Shown: positions 1 through 17,023, counted from the stretch's first letter. The stretch is DNA of 64,000 nucleotides from Candidatus Omnitrophota bacterium (GCA_023140385.1 JAGLLT010000039.1:34381-98380); one strand, 5' to 3'. Numbers and translations: made by a program. Notes: generated by a model not told the origin, from the sequence alone.

Positions 1-1146
1 TTAATATTAACTGAAGCTGTTAAAACTAGAGCCAGCGATGTGCATATTGAACCTTTAGAGAAACAATTTAGAGTGAGGTATAGAATAGACGGGCTATTGC
101 ATGAAGTGCCGGGGCCGCCGAAGCATTTGCAGGGTTCGGTGATAAGCAGGTTGAAGCTTATGGCGGGCATTGATATCGCTGAAAAGCGCCTGCCCCAGGA
201 CGGGCGTATCAAAGTTAAGCTTTTAAATAAAGATTTAGATTTACGGGTTTCTACGCTCCCCGGCATATATGGTGAAAGTGTGGTTATGAGAATCCTGGAT
301 AAATCAAGCCTCTTAATAGGCTTGGAAGAACTCGGATTTTTTTCAGAGGATAGGAAGAAATTTGAGGAGTTGATTGAGATGCCGAACGGGACGCTTCTTG
401 TTACCGGCCCGACTGGCTCCGGTAAAACCACTACTCTTTACGCCGCCTTAAACTATATAAATAAACCTAATAAAAAATTAATTACCATTGAGGATCCCGT
501 AGAATATCAGATAAAGGGAATAAATCAGGTTCAGATAAAACCTCAGGTTGGCCTTACCTTTTCTGCGGGATTGCGCGCTATGTTAAGGCAGGCGCCAGAC
601 GTTATATTGGTTGGTGAAATACGTGATAAGGAAACGGCCTCCATTGCCGTGCAGGCCGCCTTAACCGGCCATTTAATTTTTTCTACTCTCCATACTAATG
701 ATGCCGCGGGAGCTGTCACCAGATTGATAGATATGGGAGTTAAGTCATATCTGGTAGCTTCTACTTTGCAGGCGGTTTTAGCTCAGCGTTTGATCAGGAT
801 GATCTGTCTGAACTGCAAAGAACCTTATCAGCCAAAACCGGAAGAGCTAAAGGCTATGAATTTAAAAGAGGAGGATATCGTTGAGGCTACTTTCTTTATG
901 GGTAAAGGCTGTGACGCGTGCGGCAATACGGGATTTAAGGGGAGGAAGGGCATTTTTGAACTGATGCTGATAAATGATATTATTCGAGAGATGATATTTG
1001 AGAGAAAGTCCAGCGCGGAGATAAAGACCAAAGCCGTTGAAATGGGCATGAAGACGTTGAGAGAGGACGGTAAGGTAAAGGCTTTAAAAGGATTGACAAC
1101 TATCTCTGAAGTAGTCAGAGTTGCCCAGATAGATGAAGTATCATAA
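1..1146 (+). CDS. Type II secretion / type IV pilus assembly ATPase, GspE/PilB family (5' end lies outside the window)
   Basis: Frame 1 is open from nt 1. Translation shows ASDVHIEP, Walker A TGPTGSGKTTT and the GHLIFSTLHTNDAAG segment, followed by a C-terminal CxxC...CxxC tetracysteine. Confidence 0.85.
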   Translation, partial: LILTEAVKTRASDVHIEPLEKQFRVRYRIDGLLHEVPGPPKHLQGSVISRLKLMAGIDIAEKRLPQDGRIKVKLLNKDLDLRVSTLPGIYGESVVMRILDKSSLLIGLEELGFFSEDRKKFEELIEMPNGTLLVTGPTGSGKTTTLYAALNYINKPNKKLITIEDPVEYQIKGINQVQIKPQVGLTFSAGLRAMLRQAPDVILVGEIRDKETASIAVQAALTGHLIFSTLHTNDAAGAVTRLIDMGVKSYLVASTLQAVLAQRLIRMICLNCKEPYQPKPEELKAMNLKEEDIVEATFFMGKGCDACGNTGFKGRKGIFELMLINDIIREMIFERKSSAEIKTKAVEMGMKTLREDGKVKALKGLTTISEVVRVAQIDEVS

Positions 1147-1163
1147 ATCAATGAGGGGTATCT

Positions 1164-2234
1164 ATGATTAATATAAACAAACTACTAATGGAATGTATAG
1201 ATAAGGGCGGGTCTGATCTGCATCTGACTGTGGGCAAGCCTCCCATACTCAGGCTGGACGGCCGCCTTGTGTCTCTGGATTTTCCTGAATTGAAACCGGA
1301 TGATGTAGAAAGCATGATGACTCAGATTACTGATGAAGAAAAAAGGCGCAAAGTTAGTGAGGTAGGCGGCTGTGACTTTGGTTTTGGTTTTGGCAAGAAC
1401 AGGTTTAGGGCATCAGTCTACCGCGGGAGAGGGGTAATAGGGATATCACTCCGGCTTATTCCCTCCGAACTACTTACTTTTAGTGAATTAGGATTGTCGG
1501 ACAAAGTAAGGGATCTGCTTTTTAGAACGAGGGGCCTGATTTTAGTTACCGGCCCGACCGGTTCAGGCAAAAGCACGACGCTGGCAACAATGATAAATTA
1601 CATAAATACAAATATTGACTGTCACATAATAACCATTGAAGATCCCATTGAATATTACCATCAGCATAAAAAGAGCATTATAACTCAAAGAGAGGTGGGT
1701 ATGGATGTGCCGTCATTCTCAGAGGCGATAATCAGGGGGTTGAGAAGCGACCCCGATGTTATCCTGGTAGGAGAGATGCGCGATCTGCCGACAATACAGG
1801 CAGCCCTTCTCGCGGCGGAAACAGGCCATCTGGTTTTTGCTACTCTCCATACTGTTAATGCCGCCCAGACGGTTGACAGGGTGGTAAACTCTTTTGCTAT
1901 TCATCAACAGGAGCAGGTGAGAGCACAACTTTCAGCCTGTATTCTGGCGGTCTTATCGCAAAAACTTTTACTGAGGAAGTCCAAAAAAGGGCGCGTTGCC
2001 TGTTTTGAAGTTATGGTGTCTACTTCTTCCGTACAGAGTCTAATACGGGAAAAAAAGACCTTTAGGATACCTTCTGAACTTCAAACGGGCTCAAAGTACG
2101 GCATGAAGCCTTTTGACTTTTCTCTTATTGAACTTTATCAAAATGGTATAATATCCAAAGATACGGCTTATAAAAACGCTTTTGACAAGGAGCAGTTTGA
2201 CACTATGTTTAAAGAGAGAGTGAATAGAAAATAA
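1164..2234 (+). CDS. pilT: Twitching-motility (retraction) ATPase PilT
   Basis: 356 aa with Walker A LVTGPTGSGKSTTLA and the PilT-type motifs GHLVFATLHT and AIHQQEQVRAQLS. The size matches PilT. A GAGGGG RBS lies upstream. Confidence 0.8.
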   Translation: MININKLLMECIDKGGSDLHLTVGKPPILRLDGRLVSLDFPELKPDDVESMMTQITDEEKRRKVSEVGGCDFGFGFGKNRFRASVYRGRGVIGISLRLIPSELLTFSELGLSDKVRDLLFRTRGLILVTGPTGSGKSTTLATMINYINTNIDCHIITIEDPIEYYHQHKKSIITQREVGMDVPSFSEAIIRGLRSDPDVILVGEMRDLPTIQAALLAAETGHLVFATLHTVNAAQTVDRVVNSFAIHQQEQVRAQLSACILAVLSQKLLLRKSKKGRVACFEVMVSTSSVQSLIREKKTFRIPSELQTGSKYGMKPFDFSLIELYQNGIISKDTAYKNAFDKEQFDTMFKERVNRK

Positions 2235-3958
2235 TGGCCGGAAAGCAGTTTAGAAGAAAACCGCTGGGCGAGATACTGTTAGACCAGGGTATTATATCCC
2301 AAAAGCACCTGGATGAGGCTCTGGATGAGCAAAAGAAGTCAGGAAAACTTTTAGGAAGGGTCCTTGTTGATTTAGGTTTTGTCAAAGAAAAAAGAATCTT
2401 AGAGGCCCTGGGTCTCCAGATAGGCATGAGAGTTACCGATCTGGAAAAGATGAAAATACCTGAAGAGATTATACAAGAAATTCCCGCTTCTTTGGCCCAG
2501 GTTTATAACGTTATTCCCGTGAAGCGGGAAGGGAATGTGTTGACGGTAGCTATCTCCGATCCGTTAAATATTAATGTCCTTGATGATTTGAGATTTGTAT
2601 TGAACTGTGAAGTGCAGGGAGCCATTGCCAGTGAAGATGTGATTAATGAAGCCATAGAAAAGTACTATGGGGGAAGCAAAAGCGATGAATCCTTAAGCGG
2701 CTTGGTTCGGGAGATAGAGGAAAACACCCCCGCGGTAATAACGTCAGAGGTAACGGAAACTCTGGATATAGCGGGCCTGAAGGAGCTGGCCTCTCAGGCG
2801 CCGGTGGTTAAGCTGGTTAATCTGGTTTTGCTGCAGGCGGTGAAGGATCAGGCCAGCGATATTCACTTTGAGCCTTTTGAAGATGAATTTAAGGTGAGAT
2901 ACAGGGTTGACGGAGTTTTATATGAGATAACCCATCCGCCGAAAAATTTGAGCCTGGCTATTACATCCAGAATTAAAGTAATGGCTAGTTTAGATGTAGC
3001 CGAGTCGAGGATGCCTCAGGATGGGCGCATTATGATGAGGGTTATGGGCAGAAGCATTGACTTGCGGGTTTCTACTTTGCCGACAATTTTCGGTGAGAGC
3101 GTAGTTATGAGAGTTTTAGACAGGAGTGTGGTAAGCTTGTCTCTGGATGAGATAGGATTGATGCCGGATCAAAAAGAAAAAATTATCACCCTAATACATA
3201 AACCCAACGGCATCATTTTATCTACGGGGCCTACCGGCTCCGGCAAAACAACTACCCTCTATTCGTGCCTGAGAAGCGTAAATAAAATAGAATTTAAAAT
3301 TATTACTACCGAAGATCCGGTAGAATATGATATCGCCGGCATTATACAGGTAAGCATTAAGCCCAAGATTAACTTGACATTTGCCACCTGCCTGAGACAT
3401 ATATTAAGGCAGGATCCGGATGTTATTATGGTAGGTGAAATTAGGGATAAGGAGACGGCCCAAATCAGTATTCAGGCCTCTTTGACGGGGCATCTGGTTT
3501 TTAGCACACTTCACACGAATGATGCCCCGAGTTCGGTGGCAAGGCTGATAGATATGGGCATTGAACCTTTTTTAATAACCTCCACCGTAGAGGCAATTAT
3601 TGCTCAGAGGTTAATACGAGTTCTTTGTCCCAAATGCAAAGAGCTTTATGTTCCTTCTGAATATGAGCTTTCTCAAATTGGCCTGGATCCGGGGAGGGTT
3701 GGAAGTAAGAAATTTTACCGGGCAAAAGGTTGCCGCGAGTGCAATAATATCGGATACAAAGGCCGCAGCGGGATATATGAGATACTGCTAATGAATGATA
3801 AAATAAGAGCCTTGATTATGGAAAAGTCACATAGCGCTCTTCTACGCAGAGCCGCGATAGAAGCCGGTATGCGCACATTAAGGGAAGACGGCCTGCTGAA
3901 AGTTTACGAGGGGTTGAGCAGCATTGAGGAGGTAGTCCGTGAAACCCAGGGTTATTAA
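2234..3958 (+). CDS. pilB: Full-length assembly ATPase PilB/GspE with N-terminal GspE_N (T2SSE_N) domain
   Basis: 574 aa. An N-terminal ~140-aa GspE_N-like domain is followed by SDIHFEP, Walker A STGPTGSGKTTT and GHLVFSTLHTND, then a C-terminal Cys4 zinc site. Confidence 0.85.
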   Translation: MAGKQFRRKPLGEILLDQGIISQKHLDEALDEQKKSGKLLGRVLVDLGFVKEKRILEALGLQIGMRVTDLEKMKIPEEIIQEIPASLAQVYNVIPVKREGNVLTVAISDPLNINVLDDLRFVLNCEVQGAIASEDVINEAIEKYYGGSKSDESLSGLVREIEENTPAVITSEVTETLDIAGLKELASQAPVVKLVNLVLLQAVKDQASDIHFEPFEDEFKVRYRVDGVLYEITHPPKNLSLAITSRIKVMASLDVAESRMPQDGRIMMRVMGRSIDLRVSTLPTIFGESVVMRVLDRSVVSLSLDEIGLMPDQKEKIITLIHKPNGIILSTGPTGSGKTTTLYSCLRSVNKIEFKIITTEDPVEYDIAGIIQVSIKPKINLTFATCLRHILRQDPDVIMVGEIRDKETAQISIQASLTGHLVFSTLHTNDAPSSVARLIDMGIEPFLITSTVEAIIAQRLIRVLCPKCKELYVPSEYELSQIGLDPGRVGSKKFYRAKGCRECNNIGYKGRSGIYEILLMNDKIRALIMEKSHSALLRRAAIEAGMRTLREDGLLKVYEGLSSIEEVVRETQGY

Positions 3959-3974
3959 AGAAAGGGTATAAAAT

Positions 3975-4135: not shown

Positions 4136-4185
4136 ACTTAAATATTTTCGACAATACAGGTGGAAAGACTAAGGAGGAGTAAACA

Positions 4186-5481
4186 TTGTCTAAGTTTGAG
4201 TATAAGGCTATAAATTCGAATGGGAAAGAGATATCCGGTTTTGTAGATGCCGTTAATACGCAGGAAGCTATCGGACGCATTAAGGATAAAGGGTATTATC
4301 CCATTCAACTTACTGAAACTGAGGATAAGTTCGTGTCTGAACCGGTGTCCACTTCCGGGGGGCATGTAAAAGCGCCTGTCAAAAAGGGCGGAGTGAGCAA
4401 AGAAATCGTAATTCCTTTTTTAGGTATAGGTGTTGTTAAGAGTCAGGATGTAGCCCTTTTTACCCGCCAGCTGGCCACGCTTATCGATGCCGGCTTGCCC
4501 CTGGTGAGAAGCCTGAATGTTTTGCATGACCAGTTGAAACTGGGGCCTTTAAAAGATGTCATAGAAAGCCTTTCCAAAGAAGTTTCGGCTGGAGGAACTT
4601 TAAGTGAAGCTTTGGCCAAGTATCCGAAAATTTTTAACTCCTTGTATATTAATATGATAAAGGCGGGTGAAGCCGGCGGCGTACTGGAGATAGTTCTGGA
4701 ACGGTTGGCGGAATTCAACGAAAAAAGTTTGGCCCTCATCGGAAAGGTTAAAGCGGCTATGGCCTACCCTGTTCTGGTGGTAGTTTTTTCTTCGGCTGTA
4801 CTTTTATTTTTAACTCTTTTCCTTATACCTAAATTTATGGATATTTTTGCTTCTATGGACATAGAAGAAATGCCGGTGCCGACAATGCTTATAATGAATT
4901 TTTCAAGGATGTTTAAAAATCCATTGTGTTTAGGTTTAGGCTTGGGGTTGGTGGCTGCTTTAATAATTTTATATAAAACCTTTTCAAAGATGAAAGGCTT
5001 TAAATTATTTATTGCTAAAATAAAACTGCGTGTGCCGGTGGCAGGGGAGTTGACGAGGAAGATTGAAGTTGCTATGTTCTCACGGACACTCGGCACCCTG
5101 ATATCAAGCGGGGTTCCTATTTTACAGGCCTTGAGAATTACCAGGGGCACAATGAGTAATGAACTTATATCCCAGGCTTTAGGCCGTGTGCACGATAGTA
5201 TCAGAGAGGGTGAATCTATTGCCGCCCCTCTTAAAGCAAGCGGAGCTTTTCCTCTTATGGTTGTCAATATGATTGATGTCGGGGAAGAAACAGGTTCCCT
5301 TGATAATATGTTGATCAAGGTGGCGGATATATATGATGGCGAAGTGGATACTACCATAAGCGCGCTTACCTCGATAATTGAGCCTTTTTTAATTATCAGC
5401 ATGGGCCTTATTGTCGGCTTTATCGTTATCGCGATGTTTTTGCCCTTAATTCAGTTGATGTCAAGTATTGGCGTGAATTAA
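4186..5481 (+). CDS. pilC: Type IV pilus / T2SS inner-membrane platform protein PilC/GspF
   Basis: TTG start with an AGGAGG RBS. The N-terminus MSKFEYKAINSNGKEISG is typical of PilC. The protein has two GspF repeats and three transmembrane (TM) segments. Confidence 0.85.
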   Translation: MSKFEYKAINSNGKEISGFVDAVNTQEAIGRIKDKGYYPIQLTETEDKFVSEPVSTSGGHVKAPVKKGGVSKEIVIPFLGIGVVKSQDVALFTRQLATLIDAGLPLVRSLNVLHDQLKLGPLKDVIESLSKEVSAGGTLSEALAKYPKIFNSLYINMIKAGEAGGVLEIVLERLAEFNEKSLALIGKVKAAMAYPVLVVVFSSAVLLFLTLFLIPKFMDIFASMDIEEMPVPTMLIMNFSRMFKNPLCLGLGLGLVAALIILYKTFSKMKGFKLFIAKIKLRVPVAGELTRKIEVAMFSRTLGTLISSGVPILQALRITRGTMSNELISQALGRVHDSIREGESIAAPLKASGAFPLMVVNMIDVGEETGSLDNMLIKVADIYDGEVDTTISALTSIIEPFLIISMGLIVGFIVIAMFLPLIQLMSSIGVN

Positions 5482-5561: not shown

Positions 5562-5984
5562 GTGAAAAAGAGCGGATTTACTCTTATAGAGATGATGGTT
5601 GTGCTGATTATTATGGGCATTTTGGCGGGCTTGGTGACCAGTGCCACTATCAAAACTTTGCAGGACGCGAAGAAGAGCGAAGCGGAGGTAGTTATTTCAG
5701 CGGTTGCCTCAGCCTTAGCCAGATATGAGTCTGACATTGGCGATTATCCACCGGGGAACGGTTCAGGTAACGCTTTTTGGTACTACCTGCAGGATGATAG
5801 GAGCCTTGATGTTTCCTCGGCATGGAACGGGCCCTATATGACCTTTGATAATGATGATATATCAGGTAACGCGGTAAAAGACCCTTGGGGCAATGCTTAT
5901 AACTATAAGAACTACCCAGGGGTTCATAATCCCGCCTTTGTTGATATAGAGGATGGTTCCGGAGAAGATGTTAATAACTGGTGA
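5562..5984 (+). CDS. GspG-like major pseudopilin, paralog 1 (prepilin class III signal)
   Basis: KKSG|FTLIEMMVVLIIMGIL prepilin cleavage/methylation motif. GspG-like core with YESDIGDYPP...WNGPYM...DPWGNAYNY. Confidence 0.75.
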   Translation: MKKSGFTLIEMMVVLIIMGILAGLVTSATIKTLQDAKKSEAEVVISAVASALARYESDIGDYPPGNGSGNAFWYYLQDDRSLDVSSAWNGPYMTFDNDDISGNAVKDPWGNAYNYKNYPGVHNPAFVDIEDGSGEDVNNW

Positions 5985-6442
5985 GAAAGATGAAAAATAA
6001 AGGTTTTACCCTAATTGAGATGATAGTGGTTATGACTATTATCGGCATCCTGGCCGCTTTAATTTCGGCGGCGACCTTTAGGGCTATAGAGGATGCTAAA
6101 GAAAGTAAAGCGGCGGCGGCTATTTCCGCCGTAGAAGCGGCTCTGGCAATGTATGAATCTGACGTAGCAGGTTATCCTCTGCAAGCCGCCGGCGATAATG
6201 CCTTTAAATCCCATCTCCAGAATGATGATGGCGCGGTTGGCTGGAACGGCCCATATATGAACTTTATAGATGAAGACCTGGACAAGCCTGCCGCGATAGG
6301 AGGAACCAAGTATATGGATCCCTGGGGCAATGCCTACCAGTATAAATGTCCGGGTAATAATGGTGTTTATGATATCTGGTCTTGCGGTAATGACGGAGTT
6401 GATGATAGTGGCGGCGGAGATGATATTAATGCCTGGGATTAA
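5981..6442 (+). CDS. GspG-like major pseudopilin, paralog 2
   Basis: KG|FTLIEM N-terminus and the same GspG-like core. It ends ...GNDGVDDSGGGDDINAWD. Translation may begin at GTG 5981 or at ATG 5990. Confidence 0.75.
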   Translation: MRKMKNKGFTLIEMIVVMTIIGILAALISAATFRAIEDAKESKAAAAISAVEAALAMYESDVAGYPLQAAGDNAFKSHLQNDDGAVGWNGPYMNFIDEDLDKPAAIGGTKYMDPWGNAYQYKCPGNNGVYDIWSCGNDGVDDSGGGDDINAWD

Positions 6443-6471: not shown

Positions 6472-6942
6472 ATGGTGAAAAAAGTCAGGATTAAAAGAAA
6501 TAAGCGCTTAAAAGGCTTTACACTTATAGAGATGATGTTTGTGATTGTTATTATCGGCATCCTGGCCAGTTTGATGACTACCGGAGCCTTCAGGGCTATC
6601 AGGGAGGCGAGAGAAGAGAAGGCCAAAGTTGCCATCTCGGCCATAGAGGCCGCCCTTGAGATGTACAAACTTGATGTGGGCTCTTATCCGGCGGGAGACG
6701 GCTCAGGCAACAGCTTTAAATCCCACCTGCAAAATGATGATGGCGCGGTTGGTTGGAGCGGGCCCTATATGAGTTTCAACTCCACAAACAACAGTATAAA
6801 TGATCCTTGGGATAATGCCTACCGGTATAAATGCCCGGGCACTAGTCACGGTAGTACTGAAAATCCCCTTGATATCTGGTCATGCGGCAATGATGAAGTT
6901 GATAACAGCGGCGGCGGGGATGACCTTAACACATGGGATTAA
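6472..6942 (+). CDS. GspG-like major pseudopilin, paralog 3 (long basic leader)
   Basis: Leader MVKKVRIKRNKRLKG|FTLIEMM. Its C-terminus is nearly identical to that of paralog 2. The upstream leader block is duplicated before 6972. Confidence 0.75.
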   Translation: MVKKVRIKRNKRLKGFTLIEMMFVIVIIGILASLMTTGAFRAIREAREEKAKVAISAIEAALEMYKLDVGSYPAGDGSGNSFKSHLQNDDGAVGWSGPYMSFNSTNNSINDPWDNAYRYKCPGTSHGSTENPLDIWSCGNDEVDNSGGGDDLNTWD

Positions 6943-6971: not shown

Positions 6972-7523
6972 ATGATGAGAAAAGTCAGGATTAAAAGAAA
7001 TAAATTCTTAAAAGGTTTTACCCTGATGGAAATGATGGTGGTAATTGCCATAATGTTTATTGTAGTTGCCGTAGCAATGCCCAACTTCTGGGGCGGCCGC
7101 GGTAGTAAGGAGCACAAAGGAGCCGCCAGAAGAATTGCCTCAACCTTGCAAGTTGCTAAAGGTTGTGCCGAGGCTCAGAATGTTGTTCATCACTTCCTCG
7201 CCTGGATAAACTCAGGCAACACTATCAGTATGGATATATATAAGACTACCTATGCAACCTTTCCACCCGCGAACAAGGTGGGTAAAAGCGAAAAAATGAC
7301 CCTGTCAGCCCCCTTTAATATATCAACTACCTTAGATGTTCCCAGTGATGGTAGTACCTGGGGCGCGTACTATATTAAATTCAATCCTGAGGGAAGCGCC
7401 GATGACGGTGACGCCGCCATCGGAGATGAGACCATCACTATCTGGAATACAGCTACCGGAAAGTCTATTGATATTACCATTTCAGAGGATACGGGCTGTA
7501 TCTCTATCGGAGATCTTTATTAG
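6972..7523 (+). CDS. Minor pseudopilin, GspH/FimT-like
   Basis: Leader MMRKVRIKRNKFLKG|FTLMEMM (a duplicated leader) followed by a hydrophobic helix and a 183-aa body. Confidence 0.6.
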   Translation: MMRKVRIKRNKFLKGFTLMEMMVVIAIMFIVVAVAMPNFWGGRGSKEHKGAARRIASTLQVAKGCAEAQNVVHHFLAWINSGNTISMDIYKTTYATFPPANKVGKSEKMTLSAPFNISTTLDVPSDGSTWGAYYIKFNPEGSADDGDAAIGDETITIWNTATGKSIDITISEDTGCISIGDLY

Positions 7524-7729: not shown

Positions 7730-8485
7730 ATGAGAAGGTTTGTTCTTGCAATTTTATTATTATTTGTAGCTTTAAGCGTTTGTTCATTATCAAACGCCCA
7801 ACAGATTGCCCCCCGCAAATGGTCTCAACTGCCCGATATGGAGTGGGGTTTTGATGTATATTCAACAATTATGCCGTACGGTTACAGTAGTAATGTCGCT
7901 GATGACTGGCTCTGCACCAACGGACTGCCTATTACCGATATCCACTGGTGGGGTTCATACGGTGATTGGTCTATGGACGCGCGTCCGGAAAATACTATAA
8001 CCGGTTTTCAGATAGATATATTTGGCTATTATGCGCCGTACCCATTTTATATTCCTCACGCGAGATATAATCTTACTATAGAAGAAGTGAATGAGACCTA
8101 CTGCGGCTTACAGGAATATACAGGACACAGCGCATTTGAGTACTCTATTATACTTGATGAACCCTTTAATCAGGAAGAAGGAAGTACCTACTGGCTGATG
8201 ATAGCGGCTTATTTAGAAGATGGGACTTCTTATGAGTGGGGCTGGAAAACAACTGATCCTGATTCAAGGTATGGTTGCGGCGCGGTTAAATACACAGGAG
8301 ATAGTTGGGAGTGGATTCCAATTGAATACAGCGATTACGTAGATCCAAGTCATCCCTATTATGATTACGGCCCGGTTAATATGGCCTTTGAGCTGACTAC
8401 TATCCCTGAACCGGCCGCGATAATTATGCTGGGAAGTTTGGCTACCGGATTGTTCGGCATAGCAGGCATAAAAAGAAAAAGGTAA
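7730..8485 (+). CDS. Secreted Trp/Tyr-rich protein with a C-terminal PEP-CTERM sorting signal
   Basis: AGGAG RBS. N-terminal signal peptide MRRFVLAILLLFVALSVCSLSNA. The C-terminus IPEPAAIIMLGSLATGLFGIAGIKRKR* has PEP, a hydrophobic TM segment and a basic tail. Confidence 0.7.
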   Translation: MRRFVLAILLLFVALSVCSLSNAQQIAPRKWSQLPDMEWGFDVYSTIMPYGYSSNVADDWLCTNGLPITDIHWWGSYGDWSMDARPENTITGFQIDIFGYYAPYPFYIPHARYNLTIEEVNETYCGLQEYTGHSAFEYSIILDEPFNQEEGSTYWLMIAAYLEDGTSYEWGWKTTDPDSRYGCGAVKYTGDSWEWIPIEYSDYVDPSHPYYDYGPVNMAFELTTIPEPAAIIMLGSLATGLFGIAGIKRKR

Positions 8486-9158: not shown

Positions 9159-9557
9159 ATGAGAAAAAGTAAGGGTTTTACGCTTTTAGAGATTGTGATT
9201 GCCCTGGCCATTCTGGTGATAGGTTTGGTTGGTATTTTGAGCCTCTTTCCGGTAGGTTTTCAGGCCTCCCGCAGAGCCTGTATGCTGACAGAGGCCACCA
9301 TTCATGCTCAGCAGGAGATAGAGAATTTTAAGCGGTTGGGGTATAGTCATCTTGATACAACTTTTACTGATGGGGCAGCTTCTAAGGTTGACGGGACGGC
9401 TGGTTGGACTGACTTTGGCGATGGTATTGAGTGTCAAGTTACTGTTACAGAGATAAACCCGCCCGGCGGCCTCAAAAGCGTTGAAGTTGAAATTCGATGG
9501 AAGGAGAAAGGAAGCTTTAAAAGTGAGACATTTATTACGTATATTGCCGAAAAATAA
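9159..9557 (+). CDS. Minor pseudopilin, GspI/PilV-like
   Basis: MRKSKG|FTLLEIVIALAIL prepilin motif. The protein is 132 aa. Confidence 0.6.
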   Translation: MRKSKGFTLLEIVIALAILVIGLVGILSLFPVGFQASRRACMLTEATIHAQQEIENFKRLGYSHLDTTFTDGAASKVDGTAGWTDFGDGIECQVTVTEINPPGGLKSVEVEIRWKEKGSFKSETFITYIAEK

Positions 9558-10143
9558 AAAAGGCTTTACCTTAATTGAAGTTTTAATAGCCAGCGTCATT
9601 CTGGTGATAGTGATGGGAAGCATGACTTTGGTATTTATCGAAGCCAACCGCGCCTGGACCCAGAGTGAGGCCAAACTGCAGGTTTATCAAAACGCCAGGG
9701 AAGCCCTCAGTCGGATGACAAGAGAACTGGCCTGCGCCTATCAGAGTTCATCGTCTACTACTCTGGAGAAGTTTAACTGGGATGATAGCCAGAAAAAGCT
9801 TGCTTTTACCGCCGCCTTTAATGTTGTTTATGACACCGATGAGTACGATTTAACTAAATTAGGCTACTGGCTTGACACTACGACTATGACACTGAAGAGA
9901 TATAAGAAGGATTATGGCGGCGGCGGCGGCGGAACGTGGAACCCGATAGCGGAAAATATTAAAACTTTAGCTTTCAAATATTACGATCATAAATTAGATA
10001 TTTGGGTCAGCGTTTGGGATCCTGCTGGTGCTACTCCCAGAGATTATTTGCCCAGGGCGGTTGAGATTACCATAACTGCCGAAGATAAACAGGGAAGGTT
10101 TACCAGAACTTTCGTAGATACAGTTTATATACCGATGTCTTAA
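9523..10143 (+). CDS. Minor pseudopilin, GspJ/PilW-like
   Basis: KNKKG|FTLIEVLIASVIL prepilin motif, about 200 aa. GTG 9523 has a GGAGAAAGGA RBS and overlaps the end of the upstream gene. Confidence 0.55.
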   Translation: MRHLLRILPKNKKGFTLIEVLIASVILVIVMGSMTLVFIEANRAWTQSEAKLQVYQNAREALSRMTRELACAYQSSSSTTLEKFNWDDSQKKLAFTAAFNVVYDTDEYDLTKLGYWLDTTTMTLKRYKKDYGGGGGGTWNPIAENIKTLAFKYYDHKLDIWVSVWDPAGATPRDYLPRAVEITITAEDKQGRFTRTFVDTVYIPMS

Positions 10144-10232
10144 TTTAATTTTCCCATTAGCGTGAAAGAAAGCCCCGAAGCCGCTCTTCCTTAGCTTAAG
10201 CAGGCCGGTAAAAAAAATTAATTAAAAGTTGT

Positions 10233-10262
10233 TGATTAAATATAGAAGGTGTTGTACAATAT
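10233..10262 (+). promoter_or_regulatory. Candidate promoter upstream of pilMN (TTGATT-17-TACAAT)
   Basis: Read from the sequence. Confidence 0.35.
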
Positions 10263-10309
10263 TACGGCGGGATTTGACTAACTTGAACTTTTAATAAACT
10301 GGTATATTT

Positions 10310-11965
10310 ATGGCAACGATAAAAAATTTAATCGGATTAGATATAGGCGGCAGCTCTGTCAAGCTTGTTAAATTTAAAAAAGTAAGAAATAAAATTCAGC
10401 TGGAAAAAGCCAGGGCTATAGAGCTAAAAGACGCGAAGTCTCTTCCCGCGGCCATAGCCGCTTTATTGAAAAGCGAAAAGATTCACACCTCAAAAGTTGC
10501 CGTATCCATTTCCGGCCAGTCAGTTTTTACGCGCTATGTTAAACTGCCAAAAATTTCCCAGAAAAAAATTGAGCAGGTAGTAAAATATGAAGCTCAGCAG
10601 CAAATTCCTTTTCCCATAGACAAGGTTATCTGGGATTATCAACTATTCGAAAATTCAAAGTCTCCTCAGTTAGAGGTCTTTCTTTCCGCTGTAAAGAAAG
10701 ATATTATTGACAACATCTACCGCCAGGTTTCTCAGGTTAAAGGCCTGGATGTTGTTTCTATGCAGGCGGCTCCCGTCGCTCTTTACAACATACTTAAGTT
10801 TAGCGGTGAAGTTAAAAATGACGCTATCATTCTTGACTTTGGGGCGAAAATAACCAATGTTGTTATTGCCAAGGGCAAGCAGATATGGATTAGAAGTATT
10901 CCTATAGGCGGTGATGATTTAACAAAAGCCATAAGTAAGCAGATGAAGACGGGGCCTGAGCAGGCAGAGGCCATGAAGAGAAAAGAAGGCATTATCCTTG
11001 CCGGAGCTACGGGGGATGAAGAGTTGACCCCGAGGTCTGATCTTATTTCCAAGGCTATCAGCCCCGTACTTACAGACCTGTTAGCGGAAATTATGCGCTC
11101 TATCAGTTATTATAAGTCTCAGTTTGATAAAACGGCCGCTTTTCAGGAGATTCTTCTGACGGGGGGCGCTTCAAAGATTATGTGCGTCGAGAGATTTTTT
11201 GAGCAAAACTTAAAAATTAAAACCCGCAAAGTTAATCTCTTAAAAGGCTTTGTTGTCAACAAATACATGAAGGCAAACCTTGATGTCATAGAGGACAGGC
11301 TGGGAGTGGCCATGGGGCTGGGGCTGCCAGCCGTCCAAACACCTGTCATAGAGATTAACCTGATATCCAGAGAACAAAGAAAGCTGAAGGAGTTCGGCAA
11401 GAAAGAGTTTTACATAATTGCCTCTGAGATTGTGCTTTTGGGCATTTTTCTGATGTTATCTTTTTTCTGCTCTCAGTCGAAAGAGTTAAGCCAAAGAAAC
11501 CTGCTGGCCATAACCGGCGAGATGGATAAGTACCGCGGAAATCAACGCTCCGTTTACGCGCTTCACGATCAAAACAAAGATGTTGAGGCAAAGCTGGATT
11601 TTCTCGGCGGCCTTATTTACCGAAAGAGGTTCTGGCTTGATGTAATAGCCGAAATAAACGCTATTGTGCCTAAAGAAGCCTGGTTGACAAAGTTAACCAC
11701 TGATCTCAGCCGGGAAGCAATAATTATTGAAGGAAAAACAACGGGGCCGTTTGATACCGTTAAAAGCATAAAAGAAAATTTGTTAAAATTAAATTATTTT
11801 TCTGAGGTGGAAACACTCAGGGCGGACCGCCCCTCCCCTCAGGAAGAGGAAGAGTTAGAAGAGTATAATATTATATTTACATTGAAGTTAAAATTGAAGA
11901 AACCCTCCCCGGCTTATTATGATAGAGAGAAAGAAGATCTGATTGAAAGGCATATGGTGAAATGA
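10310..11965 (+). CDS. pilMN: PilM-PilN fusion protein (actin-like ATPase-fold PilM fused to bitopic PilN)
   Basis: An N-terminal IGLDIGGSSVKLV actin-fold segment of about 340 aa is followed by IEINLISREQRK, a TM helix and a PilN-like periplasmic domain. The reading frame is continuous. Confidence 0.75.
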   Translation: MATIKNLIGLDIGGSSVKLVKFKKVRNKIQLEKARAIELKDAKSLPAAIAALLKSEKIHTSKVAVSISGQSVFTRYVKLPKISQKKIEQVVKYEAQQQIPFPIDKVIWDYQLFENSKSPQLEVFLSAVKKDIIDNIYRQVSQVKGLDVVSMQAAPVALYNILKFSGEVKNDAIILDFGAKITNVVIAKGKQIWIRSIPIGGDDLTKAISKQMKTGPEQAEAMKRKEGIILAGATGDEELTPRSDLISKAISPVLTDLLAEIMRSISYYKSQFDKTAAFQEILLTGGASKIMCVERFFEQNLKIKTRKVNLLKGFVVNKYMKANLDVIEDRLGVAMGLGLPAVQTPVIEINLISREQRKLKEFGKKEFYIIASEIVLLGIFLMLSFFCSQSKELSQRNLLAITGEMDKYRGNQRSVYALHDQNKDVEAKLDFLGGLIYRKRFWLDVIAEINAIVPKEAWLTKLTTDLSREAIIIEGKTTGPFDTVKSIKENLLKLNYFSEVETLRADRPSPQEEEELEEYNIIFTLKLKLKKPSPAYYDREKEDLIERHMVK

Positions 11966-12744
11966 ATTTCTATATAAAACTGCTAAAAAAGAATTTGTTT
12001 GCCTTTATTTTTATGGGTGTACTTTTAATAGCTATTATTATTTCAGCCGGTGTTTTTACGGCGCTTCTGGCCGGCAAGGCTGGTGTTGAAAATAAGGTTA
12101 AAGGAGAGTTGGTTCTCCGAGAGAACCTTACGATGGCAAAGAAAGACGCTCCTACTCTTGAGTGGATTAGCTACCTGACGAAAAAGAATGAGGCGCTTGA
12201 TAAAATATATAACGGCCTTATGGAAAAAATTGACGGGCCGGCCGTAAAGATGCCCGTGGAAGTGATGGAGTCCTTAAAGTTTAAGGAAAAGATATTTGAA
12301 GTTCAAAAAGATCTTAGAAAAGAGGCCGCCGGCAAACAGTTGGAGTTTAAAGATAAGGCTGTATTCTTAGGTTTTAAAGAGTATGAAACCAAGATTCCGC
12401 GTGATAAAGAGGTTCCAAACCTGACTAAACAGCTGGAGATCATAGAAGAGTTGATATCATTGATGTTTGAAAGCGAAATTGAAACCATTGAAGATATCGA
12501 ACTTCTTAAGTTTAATGATGGAGCCATTAAGGAAAAGAAAGATGAATTTAGGTACCGGGTCTTTCCTGTAAGGCTGGAGATTACTTCAAGCGTTAAAAAT
12601 CTGGCCTGGTTTTTCTTCAGGCTGTCTGAGTCGGACTTTATTTTTATGCCGGAGGAGCTAAAGATAGACTCTATGCCGGACTTAAAAGATAGAGTTAAGG
12701 GTAATTTTGTTATTTCCACTATTATTTTTTTGACAGACAATTAA
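11962..12744 (+). CDS. PilO-like bitopic inner-membrane pilus alignment protein
   Basis: ATGA overlap with pilMN. The protein has an N-terminal TM helix and a coiled-coil periplasmic domain. It is called PilO-like from its size and position. Confidence 0.45.
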   Translation: MNFYIKLLKKNLFAFIFMGVLLIAIIISAGVFTALLAGKAGVENKVKGELVLRENLTMAKKDAPTLEWISYLTKKNEALDKIYNGLMEKIDGPAVKMPVEVMESLKFKEKIFEVQKDLRKEAAGKQLEFKDKAVFLGFKEYETKIPRDKEVPNLTKQLEIIEELISLMFESEIETIEDIELLKFNDGAIKEKKDEFRYRVFPVRLEITSSVKNLAWFFFRLSESDFIFMPEELKIDSMPDLKDRVKGNFVISTIIFLTDN

Positions 12745-12756
12745 CCGGTAGGGCGA

Positions 12757-13458
12757 ATGGAAAAAAATTTTATTGTGAATAATATAGAGAAAATTGTTTT
12801 TTTTCTGCTTTTTATCGCGGCGGCAGCGCTCTTCGGAGGCTATCAAAAAGGACTTTATCTAAAGGGTATTGATGTTCAAAAAAAGCTTGCGGGCTACAAA
12901 TTTATACCGCCGCCTACAAGCATAGAGGGCATAGACACGCATAAAGAAACTATTGTGGAGCTAAGCAAGACCGCTTCTTTCTCCGACTACGAAGCTTGTT
13001 TTGAGAGGCAGGCGTTTAGTAAGTTTTTCATTCCTCCTCCGGTGGTGCCGCTCTTTGAGTATGAAAGCTGTAGTCCCGTTTATATGGATATAGTCTATAA
13101 AGGCTATATACAGTCATTAGCCGGAGTAGTGGGACAGATTAAAGTTGATAAAAGAAGTTACTTTGTGAGGGAGAAGGAGCGGATTGCTGACTACACGGTT
13201 GTAAAGATCAGAAAAGACTACGCGGTAGTTGAGAATACCGCGGGTAAAGAAATCAGATTGCCCCTTAGAGAAAGAATTTTAGGGGATGATTATCAGGCAG
13301 TTTTGTTTGTAACCGGGACAGGGGAAACAGTTAACGTCAAAAGAGGGGATGTTATAGAAAACTTCAAAGTACTTGACATTACACCTACTTGTGTGGTATT
13401 ATACAATGAAGGTACCCACCAACGCCTGGTTATTAAGCTGGAAGCGGGAAAGCAGTAG
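12757..13458 (+). CDS. Hypothetical membrane-anchored protein (possible PilP analogue)
   Basis: N-terminal TM or signal-anchor segment. The assignment rests only on its position between the PilO-like and secretin-associated genes. Confidence 0.3.
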   Translation: MEKNFIVNNIEKIVFFLLFIAAAALFGGYQKGLYLKGIDVQKKLAGYKFIPPPTSIEGIDTHKETIVELSKTASFSDYEACFERQAFSKFFIPPPVVPLFEYESCSPVYMDIVYKGYIQSLAGVVGQIKVDKRSYFVREKERIADYTVVKIRKDYAVVENTAGKEIRLPLRERILGDDYQAVLFVTGTGETVNVKRGDVIENFKVLDITPTCVVLYNEGTHQRLVIKLEAGKQ

Positions 13459-13515
13459 ATCGGGCGCTTGCAGTTTAATAAATTATTAGAGAAATATAAA
13501 AAAGGAGTTTTTATA

Positions 13516-14622
13516 ATGCTCAGGATTAGAGTCTTATTTGTTTTGACAATAGTGAGTTTGATTGCAGTTTTAACTGTACGTGGTACTGCTTACGGTGAAG
13601 TAAAGGGTAAAGCTGAAGATCTTGCCAAAAAATTAGCCGAACGTAAACAGCTGCGTCGGGAAGAAAGCGAAATCCTTGTTGAAGGCAGGACCCAAAGGGG
13701 CATATACTACTTCAATAAAGGCTATTATCATGAGGCCATTCAGCAGTTTCACCTTGTGCTTGAGATGTCACCGGATAATAAAAAGGCAAAAAGCTACCTC
13801 AACAAAGCTATAGATAAACTGCAAATCGCCGCAAAAAAGCACTACAATAAGGGAAAGGCTTATTATAACAAAGGCTATATGCAAAAATGTATCGATGAGA
13901 TGTCTTTAATCCCTGAGGGGTACCCCTATTACGCGGAGGCCCGAGAGTACATTATAAATGCCCGGGAGGTGTTAACCGGCGGCAAGGTTTACGGAATAGA
14001 GAGTCCCAAAGCCGGAACTCAGCACGTTAAGGATGAAATGAAGCGGATGACAAAAGATAAAGAGCTGGTGATGCTGAGAAAAAAGGCTCATGAGCAGAAG
14101 CTAATGATGGACGTAGAAAGGTCATATCTGCCTCCTGAGAGGCGGGAGGAGATAGAAGAAGACGATGAGATAACACCGGAGGAGATTGCTGAAAGGAAGA
14201 AAGAGGAGGCTGAGGAGAGGCTAAGGGTTAAGATGAACAAAAATATAGTACCGGCGTTAAGTTTGAGCGATGCCGATATCCGCGACGTTATAAGAGAGCT
14301 TGTCAAACTGACAGGAGTCAATATTATACTTAACGAAGGCGCGCTGAAGGAGGCGTCCGGTGGAGAAACGCTTAGCATATCTTTTACTACCGTTACTCCA
14401 ATGGCCCTTTTGGATCTGCTTGATATCGCCCTTAAAACAACGAACTTAGCTTATAAGGTAGAGCCGTCGTATATATGGATTTCAGACAAGACTTCTATTG
14501 CCGAGGAAAAGATGGTTACTCGTACATATAAACTGAAGTACGGTGTACGAAGTATTCGTGATGTCGGCTTGATTCAGTTTGACGGCGGCGATGAAGAGAT
14601 TGAAGAGGACGAAGATTTTTAA
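13516..14622 (+). CDS. Periplasmic TPR protein carrying a secretin N0 domain and a truncated N1 domain (split-secretin N-terminal module)
   Basis: AAGGAG RBS. N-terminal signal peptide and TPR-like repeats. An E-rich linker is followed by the N0/STN-like segment DADIRDVIRELVKLTGVNIIL...LLDIALKTTNLAYKVE. After N0 comes MVTRTYKLKYG, which looks like the start of an N1 domain. The protein ends with an acidic tail. Confidence 0.6.
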   Translation: MLRIRVLFVLTIVSLIAVLTVRGTAYGEVKGKAEDLAKKLAERKQLRREESEILVEGRTQRGIYYFNKGYYHEAIQQFHLVLEMSPDNKKAKSYLNKAIDKLQIAAKKHYNKGKAYYNKGYMQKCIDEMSLIPEGYPYYAEAREYIINAREVLTGGKVYGIESPKAGTQHVKDEMKRMTKDKELVMLRKKAHEQKLMMDVERSYLPPERREEIEEDDEITPEEIAERKKEEAEERLRVKMNKNIVPALSLSDADIRDVIRELVKLTGVNIILNEGALKEASGGETLSISFTTVTPMALLDLLDIALKTTNLAYKVEPSYIWISDKTSIAEEKMVTRTYKLKYGVRSIRDVGLIQFDGGDEEIEEDEDF

Positions 14623-14664
14623 ATTCAGCTATTATCAACCAAAACAACCTGTAGAGTGCAAGCT

Positions 14665-15858
14665 ATGATAAAAAGAATTACTATTTGCGTTTTTCTAAGC
14701 ATCCTGGCCATAAATTCACTGTCTTTTGCCGAAGATAGTATGACCATTAAAGAGTATCTGGAGGAAGCGCTCCCGCTTCAAAAAGACAGAAAGATAGTCT
14801 TGGACAGGACTACCGGTATTCTCACCATAACAGATACCCCGACTAACCACAAGTTAATCAGGAAGCTTATCAAAGAGTTTGATGTCGGCCCTTCACAGGT
14901 TATGATTGAAGCCAGGTTCGTGGAGGTGAAGGTGAGTAACCTGGAGGAGTTAGGGGCAGAGTTTTACTGGTATCAGGCGGGTGAGCCGGAGAATGATAAG
15001 ATACTTGAAGGTTTGTCAGTGGGAGACGCGGCGCAGATTACTGATGATTTTGGTTATAGTGATCCTACTTATTACGCGACTACTCTCGATGGTATACAGT
15101 GGGGAAGGGCAGATGACTACGGAGAATATCAGCATTTTCCTCAATCGGGCTATGGAATGGACTTTTTTATCGGCAAGACAGGCTATCACGGTAACTACTT
15201 GAGGGCTTATATCCACGCGCTGGAGCAAAAAGGCAAGGCCAATACGCTCTCAGCGCCCAAGATAGCCACCCTCTCCGGACAGATGGCCAGTATGGAGGTA
15301 AGCCGGGTGTTTCCTTATGTCAGCGAGGTAGAGTTGGAGAACTTGGGGACGGCCGATCACCCTATCTGGTGCCTTAAAAAGACGGTAGAGGAGAAAATGA
15401 TGGGTATCTCGCTTGAGGTGACGCCGTATGTCGCCAAAGGCAGTAAATATATCACCCTTGACCTTCACCCCGAGGTTAACGTTATGCTTGATCAGAAGTC
15501 CATCAGGCCGCCAGTTACCACAAGCTACCTTACTTATTATTGGCATGGGAGTGACGAAGGTTATGAGCGATATACATATACCAGTACCGTTCCCGGCGTG
15601 CCTGATTCCGTTGGCTGGCCTACGGTTGACACCCGCTCTACCCAGACAACTGTGGTTACCAAAAGCGGAAGGACTATTATCTTGGGCGGGATGATAAAGG
15701 AGGAGGAAAAGGTTTACCGTAAAAAGGTACCTTTTTTAGGCAGTATTCCGCTTTTAGGCAACTTGTTTAAGTACAAATATATTGATAAGGAAAAGACAAA
15801 TCTCCTTATCTTTATCACAGCTACTTTAATTACTCCCGAGGGTAAGGAAATAAAATAA
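14665..15858 (+). CDS. Short secretin (N3 domain + secretin core), paralog A
   Basis: Signal peptide. N3-like segment TGILTITDTPTNHKLIRKLI...QVMIEARFVEV. C-terminal secretin signature VPFLGSIPLLGNLFKYK...NLLIFITATLI. Confidence 0.75.
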   Translation: MIKRITICVFLSILAINSLSFAEDSMTIKEYLEEALPLQKDRKIVLDRTTGILTITDTPTNHKLIRKLIKEFDVGPSQVMIEARFVEVKVSNLEELGAEFYWYQAGEPENDKILEGLSVGDAAQITDDFGYSDPTYYATTLDGIQWGRADDYGEYQHFPQSGYGMDFFIGKTGYHGNYLRAYIHALEQKGKANTLSAPKIATLSGQMASMEVSRVFPYVSEVELENLGTADHPIWCLKKTVEEKMMGISLEVTPYVAKGSKYITLDLHPEVNVMLDQKSIRPPVTTSYLTYYWHGSDEGYERYTYTSTVPGVPDSVGWPTVDTRSTQTTVVTKSGRTIILGGMIKEEEKVYRKKVPFLGSIPLLGNLFKYKYIDKEKTNLLIFITATLITPEGKEIK

Positions 15859-15859
15859 T

Positions 15860-17023
15860 ATGAAAAAGATAAAGAGTTATCTAATATTAATTTTTTCATT
15901 AAATATACTATTATCCGGCAGCTACTGCGCGGGTGAGACCATAAAGGATTATTTGGAGGAGGTTTTGCCTTATCAGGAGGGCCGAAGGATAGTTATAAAT
16001 ACGGCCACCGGAGTTTTGACTATTACCGACACGCCCACTAATCATAAACTGATTAGAATGCTGATAAAAGAGTGGGATGTCGGGCCGCGTCAGATTTCCA
16101 TTGAGGCTAAATTTATTGAGCTTAGAGAGGGTGTCATTGATGAAATGGGCATTGAGTGGTACGGGACAAGAAGTGATACTCAGTACCAGGTGGGAGTAGA
16201 AAGAAGAAGAAAAAAACATAATTTTTACATTGGTGACGGTCCCCAAAGAGGTACGAATGATGAGGGAACTCCGGTAACGGTTCCGCCTGCTTATGACGAG
16301 AATATCTCCGGCGCCGAAGAGGCCTTTGATTACAGGTATGACGCCTGGGCGTCTCCTCCATGGAGCGGTACAGAGTGGGGCGCGCCCAATCAGCCGGCAG
16401 GTGTTGGTTTGTGGGTAGGCAAAAGTTCTATGTCGGGCAGCGGTTTATTCGGCTACCTGAAGGCTTTGGAGTCGACAAGTAAAGTAAATGTTTTATCCTC
16501 ACCGAGAGTTACCACCCTTTCCGGCCAGATGGCTAATATTGAGTTGGCTGTGACAGCGCCTTACGCTTCTAGTGTAGATTTAACCGATACAGGCAGGTCT
16601 GCGTTTGGCCAGTATGAGACTTATGAAATTGAGGAGAAAAAGACAGGTGTTTTTTTAGAGGTGACGCCTTCGGTTGCCGAAGGCGGCAACATTATTACTC
16701 TTGATCTGCACCCTGAGGTAAGCGAGGTAGTAAGGAAGGTTCCCCTTTCAAGCAGTGATCAGTTTCCTGAGTATCTGGGCTGGCCAATTGTTGATACCCG
16801 CTCTATGCAGACAAGTATTACCATAAGAAGCGGAGAGACGATTGTTATCGGCGGTTTGATGAGGGATGATGAGGTAGTCACGGAAAGAAAGGTTCCTTTT
16901 TTAGGAAATATCCCCATTTTAGGGAATTTATTTAAGTATAAGTTAAAGAGCAGGGAAAAGACAAATCTGGTTATCTTTTTAAAGGCGACTCTGGTATCCG
17001 CGGAGGGTGAGGAGTTAAAGTAA
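15860..17023 (+). CDS. Short secretin (N3 domain + secretin core), paralog B
   Basis: Signal peptide. N3-like segment TGVLTITDTPTNHKLIRMLI...QISIEAKFIEL. C-terminal secretin signature VPFLGNIPILGNLFKYK...NLVIFLKATLV. Confidence 0.75.
   Translation: MKKIKSYLILIFSLNILLSGSYCAGETIKDYLEEVLPYQEGRRIVINTATGVLTITDTPTNHKLIRMLIKEWDVGPRQISIEAKFIELREGVIDEMGIEWYGTRSDTQYQVGVERRRKKHNFYIGDGPQRGTNDEGTPVTVPPAYDENISGAEEAFDYRYDAWASPPWSGTEWGAPNQPAGVGLWVGKSSMSGSGLFGYLKALESTSKVNVLSSPRVTTLSGQMANIELAVTAPYASSVDLTDTGRSAFGQYETYEIEEKKTGVFLEVTPSVAEGGNIITLDLHPEVSEVVRKVPLSSSDQFPEYLGWPIVDTRSMQTSITIRSGETIVIGGLMRDDEVVTERKVPFLGNIPILGNLFKYKLKSREKTNLVIFLKATLVSAEGEELK

Follow-up and report, generated by a model that had tools for sequence, protein, structure and literature searches.

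A gene array of Candidatus Omnitrophota that probably encodes a PVC-group type IV filament machine with GspG-type pilins and a split secretin

The genes Amuc_1101 to Amuc_1098 of Akkermansia have been named a type IV pili gene cluster, with Amuc_1098 as the secretin and an FtsA-like annotation for Amuc_1101 (PMC5332112, PMC10688800). TXSScan and the papers that classify type IV filaments describe the chlamydial type II secretion system (T2SS) as chimeric and the type IVa pili (T4aP) as polyphyletic, and treat no other systems from the Planctomycetota-Verrucomicrobiota-Chlamydiota (PVC) group (PMC4793230, PMC6668835). No analysis of a PVC system beyond the chlamydial T2SS was found in these classification papers, and for Omnitrophota a literature search turned up no account of the architecture of a pilus or T2SS. 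The current study concerns a type IV filament gene array at positions 1-17023 of a 64,000-nucleotide stretch of DNA, referred to here as the window, from a Candidatus Omnitrophota bacterium (GCA_023140385.1, JAGLLT010000039.1:34381-98380). An original prediction, made from the sequence alone, had described the array as a mosaic of T2SS-type pilins and T4aP-type machinery.

Genes were assigned to families with Pfam and NCBIfam profiles, and the scores were compared with the gathering or equivalog cutoffs. All of the gene types that had been predicted were found in an array with few gaps, whose 18 genes all lie on the plus strand and are numbered in array order from PilB1 (g1) to secretin core paralogue B (g18). 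The mixture itself was confirmed, the pilins being of GspG type and both PilT and PilM of T4aP type by profile, and the profile searches did not place all components cleanly in one described system. The array is probably a near-complete, retractable type IV filament machine of the PVC group, the same system as the Akkermansia Amuc_1101-1098 cluster. It is likely best read as standard T4aP modules from end to end: pilB-T-B-C, three major pilins, two fimU-like genes with a pilV-like and a pilW-like gene, and pilMN-O-P-Q. Judged by homology, the system appears to range over Omnitrophota, Verrucomicrobiota, Kiritimatiellia, Lentisphaerae, and Planctomycetota, and the traits of this clade are pilins of the GspG fold family and the fusion of PilM and PilN. 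This reading and the alternatives weighed below are founded on gene content and homology.

The assignment to the PVC group follows from the conservation of the core genes. A scan of the clade with one genome per species gave at least 579 candidate loci, of which the best 80, mostly from Verrucomicrobiota, Kiritimatiellia, Lentisphaerae, and Planctomycetota, were compared. With iterated profiles, the order PilMN, Amuc_1100-like protein, g15 homolog, secretin recurred in these best 80 loci. The fused PilMN gene (530-734 amino acids) was present in 80 of 80, an Amuc_1100-family gene followed it in essentially all, and homologs of g15 held the Amuc_1099 position in all of them. The close homologs of the fusion were found in Omnitrophota, with 62% identity in Candidatus Kappaea frigidicola, a sister genome (locus L001), and the distant homologs were labelled Verrucomicrobiae, Kiritimatiellaeota, Phycisphaerae, Pirellulaceae, and others. 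One Verrucomicrobiae contig matched Amuc_1101_fam, Amuc_1100_fam, and Amuc_1098_fam with 602, 95, and 577 bits, respectively, and a PilC-PilB-PilT-PilB block adjoins these genes. The suggestion that the locus is an unrecognised mosaic peculiar to itself is contradicted by the same core in the best 80 PVC loci, by the Amuc_1101, Amuc_1100, and Amuc_1098 families, and by the Akkermansia cluster. This kind of system is already recognised in databases and in the Akkermansia literature; the Omnitrophota form is new. Compared with Kappaea, the array is syntenic gene for gene, except for the insertion of a DUF7901 gene and a missing GspK-like gene. Pilin genes were located upstream of PilMN in only 7 of the 53 loci with enough upstream sequence, most Verrucomicrobiota loci being without them, and the fusion of all modules in one array is a feature of the window lineage.

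The array opens with the motor genes. PilB1, an assembly ATPase of the PilB/GspE family (g1, 1..1146; Pfam T2SSE, 457 bits), is cut by the window edge. The upstream sequence was taken from contig DAOWFJ010000038.1 of the Candidatus Omnitrophica metagenome-assembled genome GCA_030638025.1 (locus L004, which like L005 is a contig of the window organism), where the gene begins about 570 nucleotides before the window (L004:8268-9983). The full-length protein has 571 amino acids and an N-terminal MshEN domain, and scores 629 for PilB and 621 for GspE. It is followed by the PilT retraction ATPase (g2, 1164..2234), which matches the full TIGR01420 PilT/PilU family model with 427 bits (cutoff 319), and by a second assembly ATPase with an MshEN domain, PilB2 (g3, 2234..3958), which scores 660 for PilB (cutoff 676) and 644 for GspE (cutoff 630). 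The inner-membrane platform protein PilC/GspF (g4, 4186..5481) has two copies of Pfam T2SSF (211 bits); the GspF model gave 376 bits and the PilC models 364 and 339, all below their cutoffs. The c-di-GMP (cyclic diguanylate)-binding motif of the MshEN domain is canonical in PilB2 (67.9 bits, cutoff 38) and degenerate in PilB1 (33.8 bits).

PilB1 and PilB2 are 46% identical (540 bits). The best full-length PDB matches of PilB2 were the Geobacter and Myxococcus PilB proteins, and its catalytic core gave 442 and 437 bits against these, compared with 426 bits against Vibrio GspE, while the PilB1 core gave 414 bits with Geobacter PilB, 409 with Thermus PilF, and 403 with GspE. A choice between PilB and GspE was attempted, and neither the NCBIfam scores nor the PDB core-region scores discriminated; both cores appear to be equidistant from PilB and GspE and assignable to neither T2SS nor T4aP. 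Two assembly ATPases flanking pilT had been considered unusual, a view that did not hold, as the PilB-PilT-PilB-PilC arrangement is conserved in Verrucomicrobiota, with PilT in the same position, and is the usual one in this clade. Against PilB2, the PilC-proximal PilB of Verrucomicrobiota gave 635 bits and is therefore closer to PilB2 than PilB1 is, which suggests that PilB2 at least represents an old orthologous lineage. The distal Verrucomicrobiota PilB, a 127-residue fragment in the fetched locus, scored equally against PilB1 and PilB2, and the sequence comparisons point to orthology for PilB2 only of the duplicated pair.

Seven pilin genes follow, all with the cleavage motif G↓FTL(I/L/M)E of a class III leader (the arrow marks the cleavage site). 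The three GspG-like major (pseudo)pilins are the shorter pilin 1 (g5, 5562..5984; N_methyl; T2SSG, 39 bits; G↓FTLIE), pilin 2 (g6, 5981..6442; TIGR01710, 97.8 bits), and pilin 3 (g7, 6475..6942; TIGR01710, 90.5 bits, cutoff 88.85 for both). They carry a DPWGNAY or DPWDNAY core, and Pfam T2SSG was above its cutoff in three of three and TIGR01710 in two of three. The globular domain of pilin 2, including the DPWG core and the acidic C-terminal loop, matched only GspG, XcpT, and EpsG in the PDB, and the T4a pilin models (PilA/PilE) matched the major pilins in the shared N-terminal helix only. By these matches all three are clearly of GspG type. Pilin 1 has an ortholog in Kappaea, and pilin 3 is 57% identical to pilin 2. 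The C-termini of pilins 2 and 3 (6340-6440 and 6840-6940) also contain two cysteines each, in the pattern YKCPG...WSCGNDG, besides an acidic loop of the GspG type. Type IV pilins are characterised by a disulfide, which is not known from canonical GspG, where calcium is used instead.

The minor pilins comprise two GspH/FimU-like proteins that are 38% identical, H1 (g8, 6975..7523; N_methyl above cutoff; GspH model, 41 bits at the N-terminus only, cutoff 80) and H2 (g10, 8567..9049; N_methyl; XpsH, 34.9 bits over the full model; Pfam GspH, 17.6 bits, cutoff 21), a GspI/PilV-like protein (g11, 9159..9557; N_methyl; XpsI 26.5, PilV 25.0, and GspI 19.3 bits, all sub-cutoff), and a GspJ/PilW-like protein (g12, 9523..10143; Pfam T2SSJ, 35.6 bits, cutoff 28). 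Thus, of the predicted set of two GspH, one GspI, and one GspJ, the GspJ assignment stood, while H and I were matched only below threshold and fit FimU and PilV about equally well. Two orphan prepilin genes (49864-50373, 169 amino acids; 50494-50904, 136 amino acids) lie at a distance from the pilus operon, with coaBC on one side and a tRNA cluster with thrS on the other. Their products share 36% identity, carry G↓FTL(V/I)E leaders, and match pilin models at their N-termini only.

The absence of GspK from the window was confirmed by tblastn, in which the Kappaea GspK-like protein and the Kappaea 388-residue protein were used as queries and no GspK-like sequence was found in the window. In Kappaea, a 794-residue protein and the gene for the 388-residue protein lie between GspJ and PilMN, and the larger protein matches Pfam T2SSK (24.9 bits, cutoff 24.2), HHH_3 (56 bits), and, sub-cutoff, comEA (42). 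In the window, the GspK position after GspJ is a 166-nucleotide intergenic gap (10144-10309). Large proteins related to the Kappaea protein occupy the same place in L007, L048, L031, L010, and L059, and L006 is likewise without the gene; the missing large GspK-like gene is a feature specific to the window lineage. The GspK-like proteins of the relatives (L001 6319-8703, L007 98-2989, L048 4342-7134, L010 2121-6050) are very large, 794 to about 1300 amino acids compared with about 300 in canonical GspK. Close to the N-terminus they have a helix-hairpin-helix region of the ComEA type, and their long extension matches no family.

A PEP-CTERM protein had been placed at the GspK position. Its gene (g9, 7730..8485; Pfam DUF7901, 112 bits; PEP-CTERM tail as anchor) instead sits between H1 and H2, and was found only in the contigs of the window organism (L004 and L005), being absent from Kappaea and all other loci. 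The best promoter-like match of the region (7598-7627) is just upstream of it. The GC content and base composition of the gene were not atypical and gave no foreign signal, and a single-sequence AlphaFold2 model of the protein had a predicted local distance difference test score (pLDDT) of 43 and was unusable. The DUF7901/PEP-CTERM gene is a lineage-specific insertion and not a GspK replacement, and its product is probably not a core part of the machine.

The next three genes encode the proteins that would link the inner membrane to the secretin. The PilM-PilN fusion of the Amuc_1101 family (g13, 10310..11965, 551 amino acids) scored 150 bits with TIGR01175 (cutoff 133) and 307 bits with Amuc_1101_fam (E = 2.5e-91, equivalog cutoff 650), and residues 445-524 gave 21.3 bits with Pfam PilN (cutoff 22.8). 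A cytoplasmic actin-like PilM domain is followed by a linker, one transmembrane helix, and a periplasmic PilN-like domain; a reading of the sequence and family consensus indicated that the linker keeps the N-terminal motif of PilN, INL(I/L). The cytoplasmic domain matches PilM and FtsA and not GspL, although the topology and domain architecture of the fusion are the same as those of GspL. The bitopic protein at the PilO/GspM position (g14, 11962..12744) gave a sub-cutoff match with Amuc_1100_fam (E = 1.6e-11) and a sub-threshold match with Pfam PilO (E = 0.023). The single g14 sequence had no match in the PDB, and its family profile (A3) matched Amuc_1100 (6KNY) with an E-value of 1.8e-21 and PilO (2rjz) with only 1.2. 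A PilM-PilN fusion with a PilO had been predicted; PilM was upheld above its cutoff, whereas the Pfam PilN and PilO matches are sub-threshold and the PilO position holds an Amuc_1100-family protein. The PilN and PilO equivalents are thus candidates by position and weak matches only.

No family was matched by g15 (12757..13458). A word-indexed search with the single sequence gave three near-identical proteins, an alignment used as the query reached further homologs, and the family profile had no match in the PDB by sequence. An AlphaFold2 model built on 27 homologs had a pLDDT above 90 for residues 100-230, and consisted of an N-terminal membrane anchor followed by a C-terminal all-beta domain of the HR type. 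In a fold search the best match was GspC-HR, a likeness that is shared with PilP. No GspL, GspM, or GspC sequence matches rose above noise in Pfam or NCBIfam, so the likeness to GspC is at the fold level only. In both T2SS and T4aP, the HR domain of GspC or PilP docks on the N0 domain of the secretin. The model suggests that g15 is the PilP/GspC equivalent, with a predicted link to a secretin N0 domain. With the PilMN fusion, a protein at the PilO position, and the PilP/GspC-like g15 all present, the alignment complex appears to be complete.

The secretin is divided among three genes, each with its own signal peptide. The N-terminal piece (g16, 13468..14622; TPR_2) has tetratricopeptide (TPR) repeats and an N0-like domain in its C-terminal region, and matches positions 235-370 of Amuc_1098_fam (E = 2.7e-7) and positions 2-84 of the GspD model (E = 0.003). 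Core paralogue A (g17, 14656..15858; Pfam Secretin 133 bits, Secretin_N 30.5 bits) has an N3-type Secretin_N domain and a secretin domain, and core paralogue B (g18, 15860..17023; Secretin 151 bits, Secretin_N 31 bits) is 41% identical to it. The secretins scored slightly higher on GspD models, all below the cutoffs, and the cores covered the whole of the short MshL model (158.6 bits, cutoff 250). When aligned with the single-gene secretins of the PVC group, g16 corresponds to the N-terminal half, and g17 and g18 each to the C-terminal half; with the L048 secretin, for example, 80-360 maps to 241-504 and 26-399 maps to 534-891. The same three-gene layout, with orthologous A and B, recurs in Kappaea (610 bits for A, 589 for B) and in L008, a locus whose PilMN is only 35% identical to that of the window. 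An assembly artefact or frameshift was considered as the cause of the split and ruled out by the separate signal peptides and by the same layout in these two loci. The split into a TPR and N0 protein and two core paralogues appears, from these alignments, to be a lineage-specific feature. Neither this split nor the GspC/PilP-like g15 was part of the original prediction.

Tandem pairs of full-length TPR secretins were also seen in L010, L012, L015, L067, and L074, among several PVC loci outside Verrucomicrobiota, so that the occurrence of two secretin paralogues is recurrent beyond the split form of Omnitrophota. Directly after secretin B is a gene for a small secreted protein of 99 amino acids (17034..17333, plus strand) with no significant family match and only a weak hit of the YbjQ/selenium-binding-like kind. 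Of the other loci, only L001 and L008 have a counterpart at this position, and the protein may be a secretin accessory, for example a pilotin-like protein.

From the genes of the array and the modelled fold of a single component, a mechanism can be proposed by homology. Genes for LpxK and a lipid A acyltransferase, also in the window, show that the cell is bounded by an outer membrane. The prepilins with G↓FTLIE leaders would be cleaved by a peptidase encoded elsewhere in the genome, and the GspG-like pilins would be polymerised by the PilC platform together with one or both of PilB1 and PilB2, the minor pilins (H-, I-, and J-like) serving as the primer. Through its MshEN motif, PilB2 is probably gated by c-di-GMP. 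PilT would depolymerise the filament, making it dynamic. The alignment complex that spans the envelope would consist of PilMN, the Amuc_1100-like protein, and g15, the HR domain of which is predicted to dock on the N0 domain carried in trans by the TPR protein g16, and g16 would in turn associate with a pore built from the two core paralogues g17 and g18. Omnitrophota are small-celled and possibly dependent on partner cells, which makes a retractable adhesive filament a plausible contact organelle; the likely use would be adhesion to, or pulling on, surfaces or partner cells.

Several observations weigh against a retractable PVC pilus, 1) the major pilins are GspG-type and not T4a-pilin-type, 2) the scores of the ATPases, PilC, and the secretins give T4aP no advantage over T2SS, 3) the PilN and PilO matches in Pfam are below the gathering thresholds, 4) the scores are below the NCBIfam Amuc equivalog cutoffs (307 versus 650 and 44 versus 180), so that the window proteins are distant relatives and not equivalogs, 5) neither a GspK/PilX-like tip pilin nor a prepilin peptidase is present in the window, so that completeness depends on genes elsewhere and 6) in the literature found, no filament, retraction, or function had been demonstrated for members of the clade, the Akkermansia work being confined to abundance and surface location. 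The GspG-type major pilins could indicate a T2SS-like secretion machine, in which a short periplasmic GspG pseudopilus pushes folded substrates through the secretin and PilT only resets or disassembles it. T2SSJ above the Pfam cutoff, the T2SSK-matching gene after J in the relatives, a PilB2 score that exceeds the GspE equivalog cutoff (644 versus 630), the highest scores of PilC and the secretins on the GspF and GspD models, a g15 that is bitopic like GspC with GspC-HR as its best fold match, and a PilM-PilN fusion with the domain architecture known from GspL are all consistent with secretion. Protein secretion within the T4aP clade is also documented, both in the Bacteroidetes "T2SS" (PMC6668835) and as secretion mediated by type IV pili (T4P; PMC4793230). 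However, PilT is present and is conserved with the locus across phyla, whereas a retraction ATPase is missing from canonical T2SS; by sequence, the cytoplasmic domain resembles PilM/FtsA rather than GspL, with no sequence match to GspL, GspM, or GspC above noise; and no obvious secreted substrate is conserved in the loci. A secretion machine is therefore considered unlikely.

The presence of PilT is also consistent with a DNA-uptake pilus of the Thermus or Vibrio kind, in which a filament of short pilins is extended, captures DNA, and is pulled back by PilT. The pilins of the array are short and give additional matches to the N-terminus of ComGC, the GspK-like protein of the relatives has the ComEA-type helix-hairpin-helix described above, and in 23 of 48 PVC loci the gene after the secretin encodes PolA or a 5'-3' exonuclease. 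Yet the helix-hairpin-helix is a normal part of GspK, as the Pfam T2SSK match indicates, the window lineage has no GspK-like gene at all, the PolA synteny may be mere conserved housekeeping order, and no ComEA, ComEC, or DprA was found in the locus or the examined window, which together make a competence function quite improbable. The consistently mixed best matches across components and the clade-wide conservation of the architecture might instead be taken to mark a separate, unnamed class of type IV filament, neither T4aP nor T2SS and possibly near the T2SS ancestor. Denise et al. found T4aP to be polyphyletic, T2SS to have arisen from T4aP, and the chlamydial T2SS to be chimeric, and did not discuss other PVC systems (PMC6668835). 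Any deep-branching T4aP would show equidistant scores, PilT is present, and the modules keep the internal order of T4aP (pilB-T-C, fimU-V-W-X, pilM-N-O-P-Q), so that such a class is held to be highly improbable. A combined view, in which the PVC machine is the closest living T4aP-grade relative of the T2SS ancestor, the chlamydial "T2SS" is its reduced derivative, and the Omnitrophota pore is heteromeric with N0 in trans, is speculative and on balance doubtful. The GspG/J/K-type pilins, the GspL-like PilMN, the bitopic GspC-like HR protein, the contiguous E-F-G-H-I-J-K-L-M order, and the retention of PilT would fit such an intermediate.

The surroundings of the array are mostly unrelated to pili. 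The 8 kb upstream of PilB1 contain housekeeping and transport genes (gatB, tsaD, mgtC, a PHO4 transporter, and PhoU), and downstream of the array come the gene for the small secreted protein, a pair of Peptidase_MA_2-like genes, polA, coaE, and rho; what remains of the window is housekeeping. As predicted, no prepilin peptidase was found in the 64-kb window, nor was one found in the 10 kb upstream, and the only polytopic membrane open reading frames of the window are Rnf subunits. An Rfam scan of the locus gave no riboswitch or other RNA element; a 6S RNA gene (58414-58570, 83 bits) and three tRNA genes (51080-51806) occur elsewhere in the window. Throughout the 64 kb, all genes are on the plus strand and the GC skew is positive. 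The Peptidase_MA_2-like genes form a tandem pair after the secretins (17464-18297 and 18320-19120), also seen in Kappaea (L001 17060-18708), and a divergent MA_2/DUF1570 homolog of 430-470 amino acids lies about 2 kb upstream of PilMN in the Verrucomicrobiota loci L002 (8322-9692), L013, L014, L024, L028, and L034. Of the PVC loci, 48 had enough downstream sequence, and in 23 of these the secretin is followed on the same strand by polA (window 19090-21789) or, where the locus is from Verrucomicrobiota, by a gene for a separate 5'-3' exonuclease (about 290-320 amino acids).

The analysis assigns, one component at a time, the parts of a pilus system that is common in the PVC group. Until now, work on this system has dealt only with its Akkermansia proteins that act on the host. 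If the array is the PVC-type pilus proposed here, Amuc_1100 homologs hold the PilO position and the Amuc_1099 position belongs to a GspC/PilP-type protein that docks on the secretin. Naming by best profile as "T2SS" or "T4P" breaks down in this clade. In the Omnitrophota secretin, N0 is carried in trans and the two core paralogues are conserved across lineages, which provides a natural experiment on secretin assembly and docking.

The array resembles the T2SS (GspC-M) in its GspG-like majors, with their DPWG core and an acidic loop at the C-terminus, in having GspJ in the window, with GspK added in relatives, in the contiguous order E-F-G-H-I-J-(K)-L-like-M-like, in the GspC-HR-like fold of g15, and in the GspL-like topology of PilMN. 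It differs in having PilT and a PilM/FtsA-like cytoplasmic domain, in lacking sequence matches to GspL, GspM, GspC, and GspN, and in that the array ends with the GspC-like gene and the secretin, in the pilMNOPQ order. The mannose-sensitive hemagglutinin (MSHA) pilus likewise has an assembly ATPase with the c-di-GMP-binding MshEN motif and a TPR protein in the system, and its dynamics depend on PilT (PMC9815625). The MSH loci, however, have no pilT of their own, and the window has no matches to MshI, J, K, M, or N and its pilins are GspG-type rather than MshA-type.

With the canonical T4aP of Pseudomonas, Myxococcus, and Thermus, the array has in common PilT, a PilM-type actin-like protein, equivalents of PilN, PilO, and PilP, the order within the modules, and the PilB, PilC, and PilT motor set, in which PilB and PilC are indistinguishable from GspE and GspF and the best full-length PDB matches of PilB2 are PilB proteins. 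The pilB-pilT-pilC arrangement is as in Myxococcus and cyanobacteria. Unlike these systems, the window has GspG-type majors, a fused PilM-PilN, two PilB paralogues, a PilP equivalent that is bitopic and not a lipoprotein, a PilO equivalent of the Amuc_1100 family, and a TPR-bearing, split secretin, and has no PilD, PilX, or PilY1. The Akkermansia Amuc_1101-1098 cluster has, in the same order, a PilM-like fusion, the Amuc_1100 protein, a hypothetical protein at the Amuc_1099 position, with which g15 is equated by position, and a TPR-bearing secretin, and Verrucomicrobiota loci share the PilC-PilB-PilT-PilB block. Work on the Akkermansia proteins has treated them as host immune effectors and not as a machine. 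In the window, the secretin is in three genes with its core duplicated, and the ATPases, PilC, and all of the pilins are encoded in the same array.

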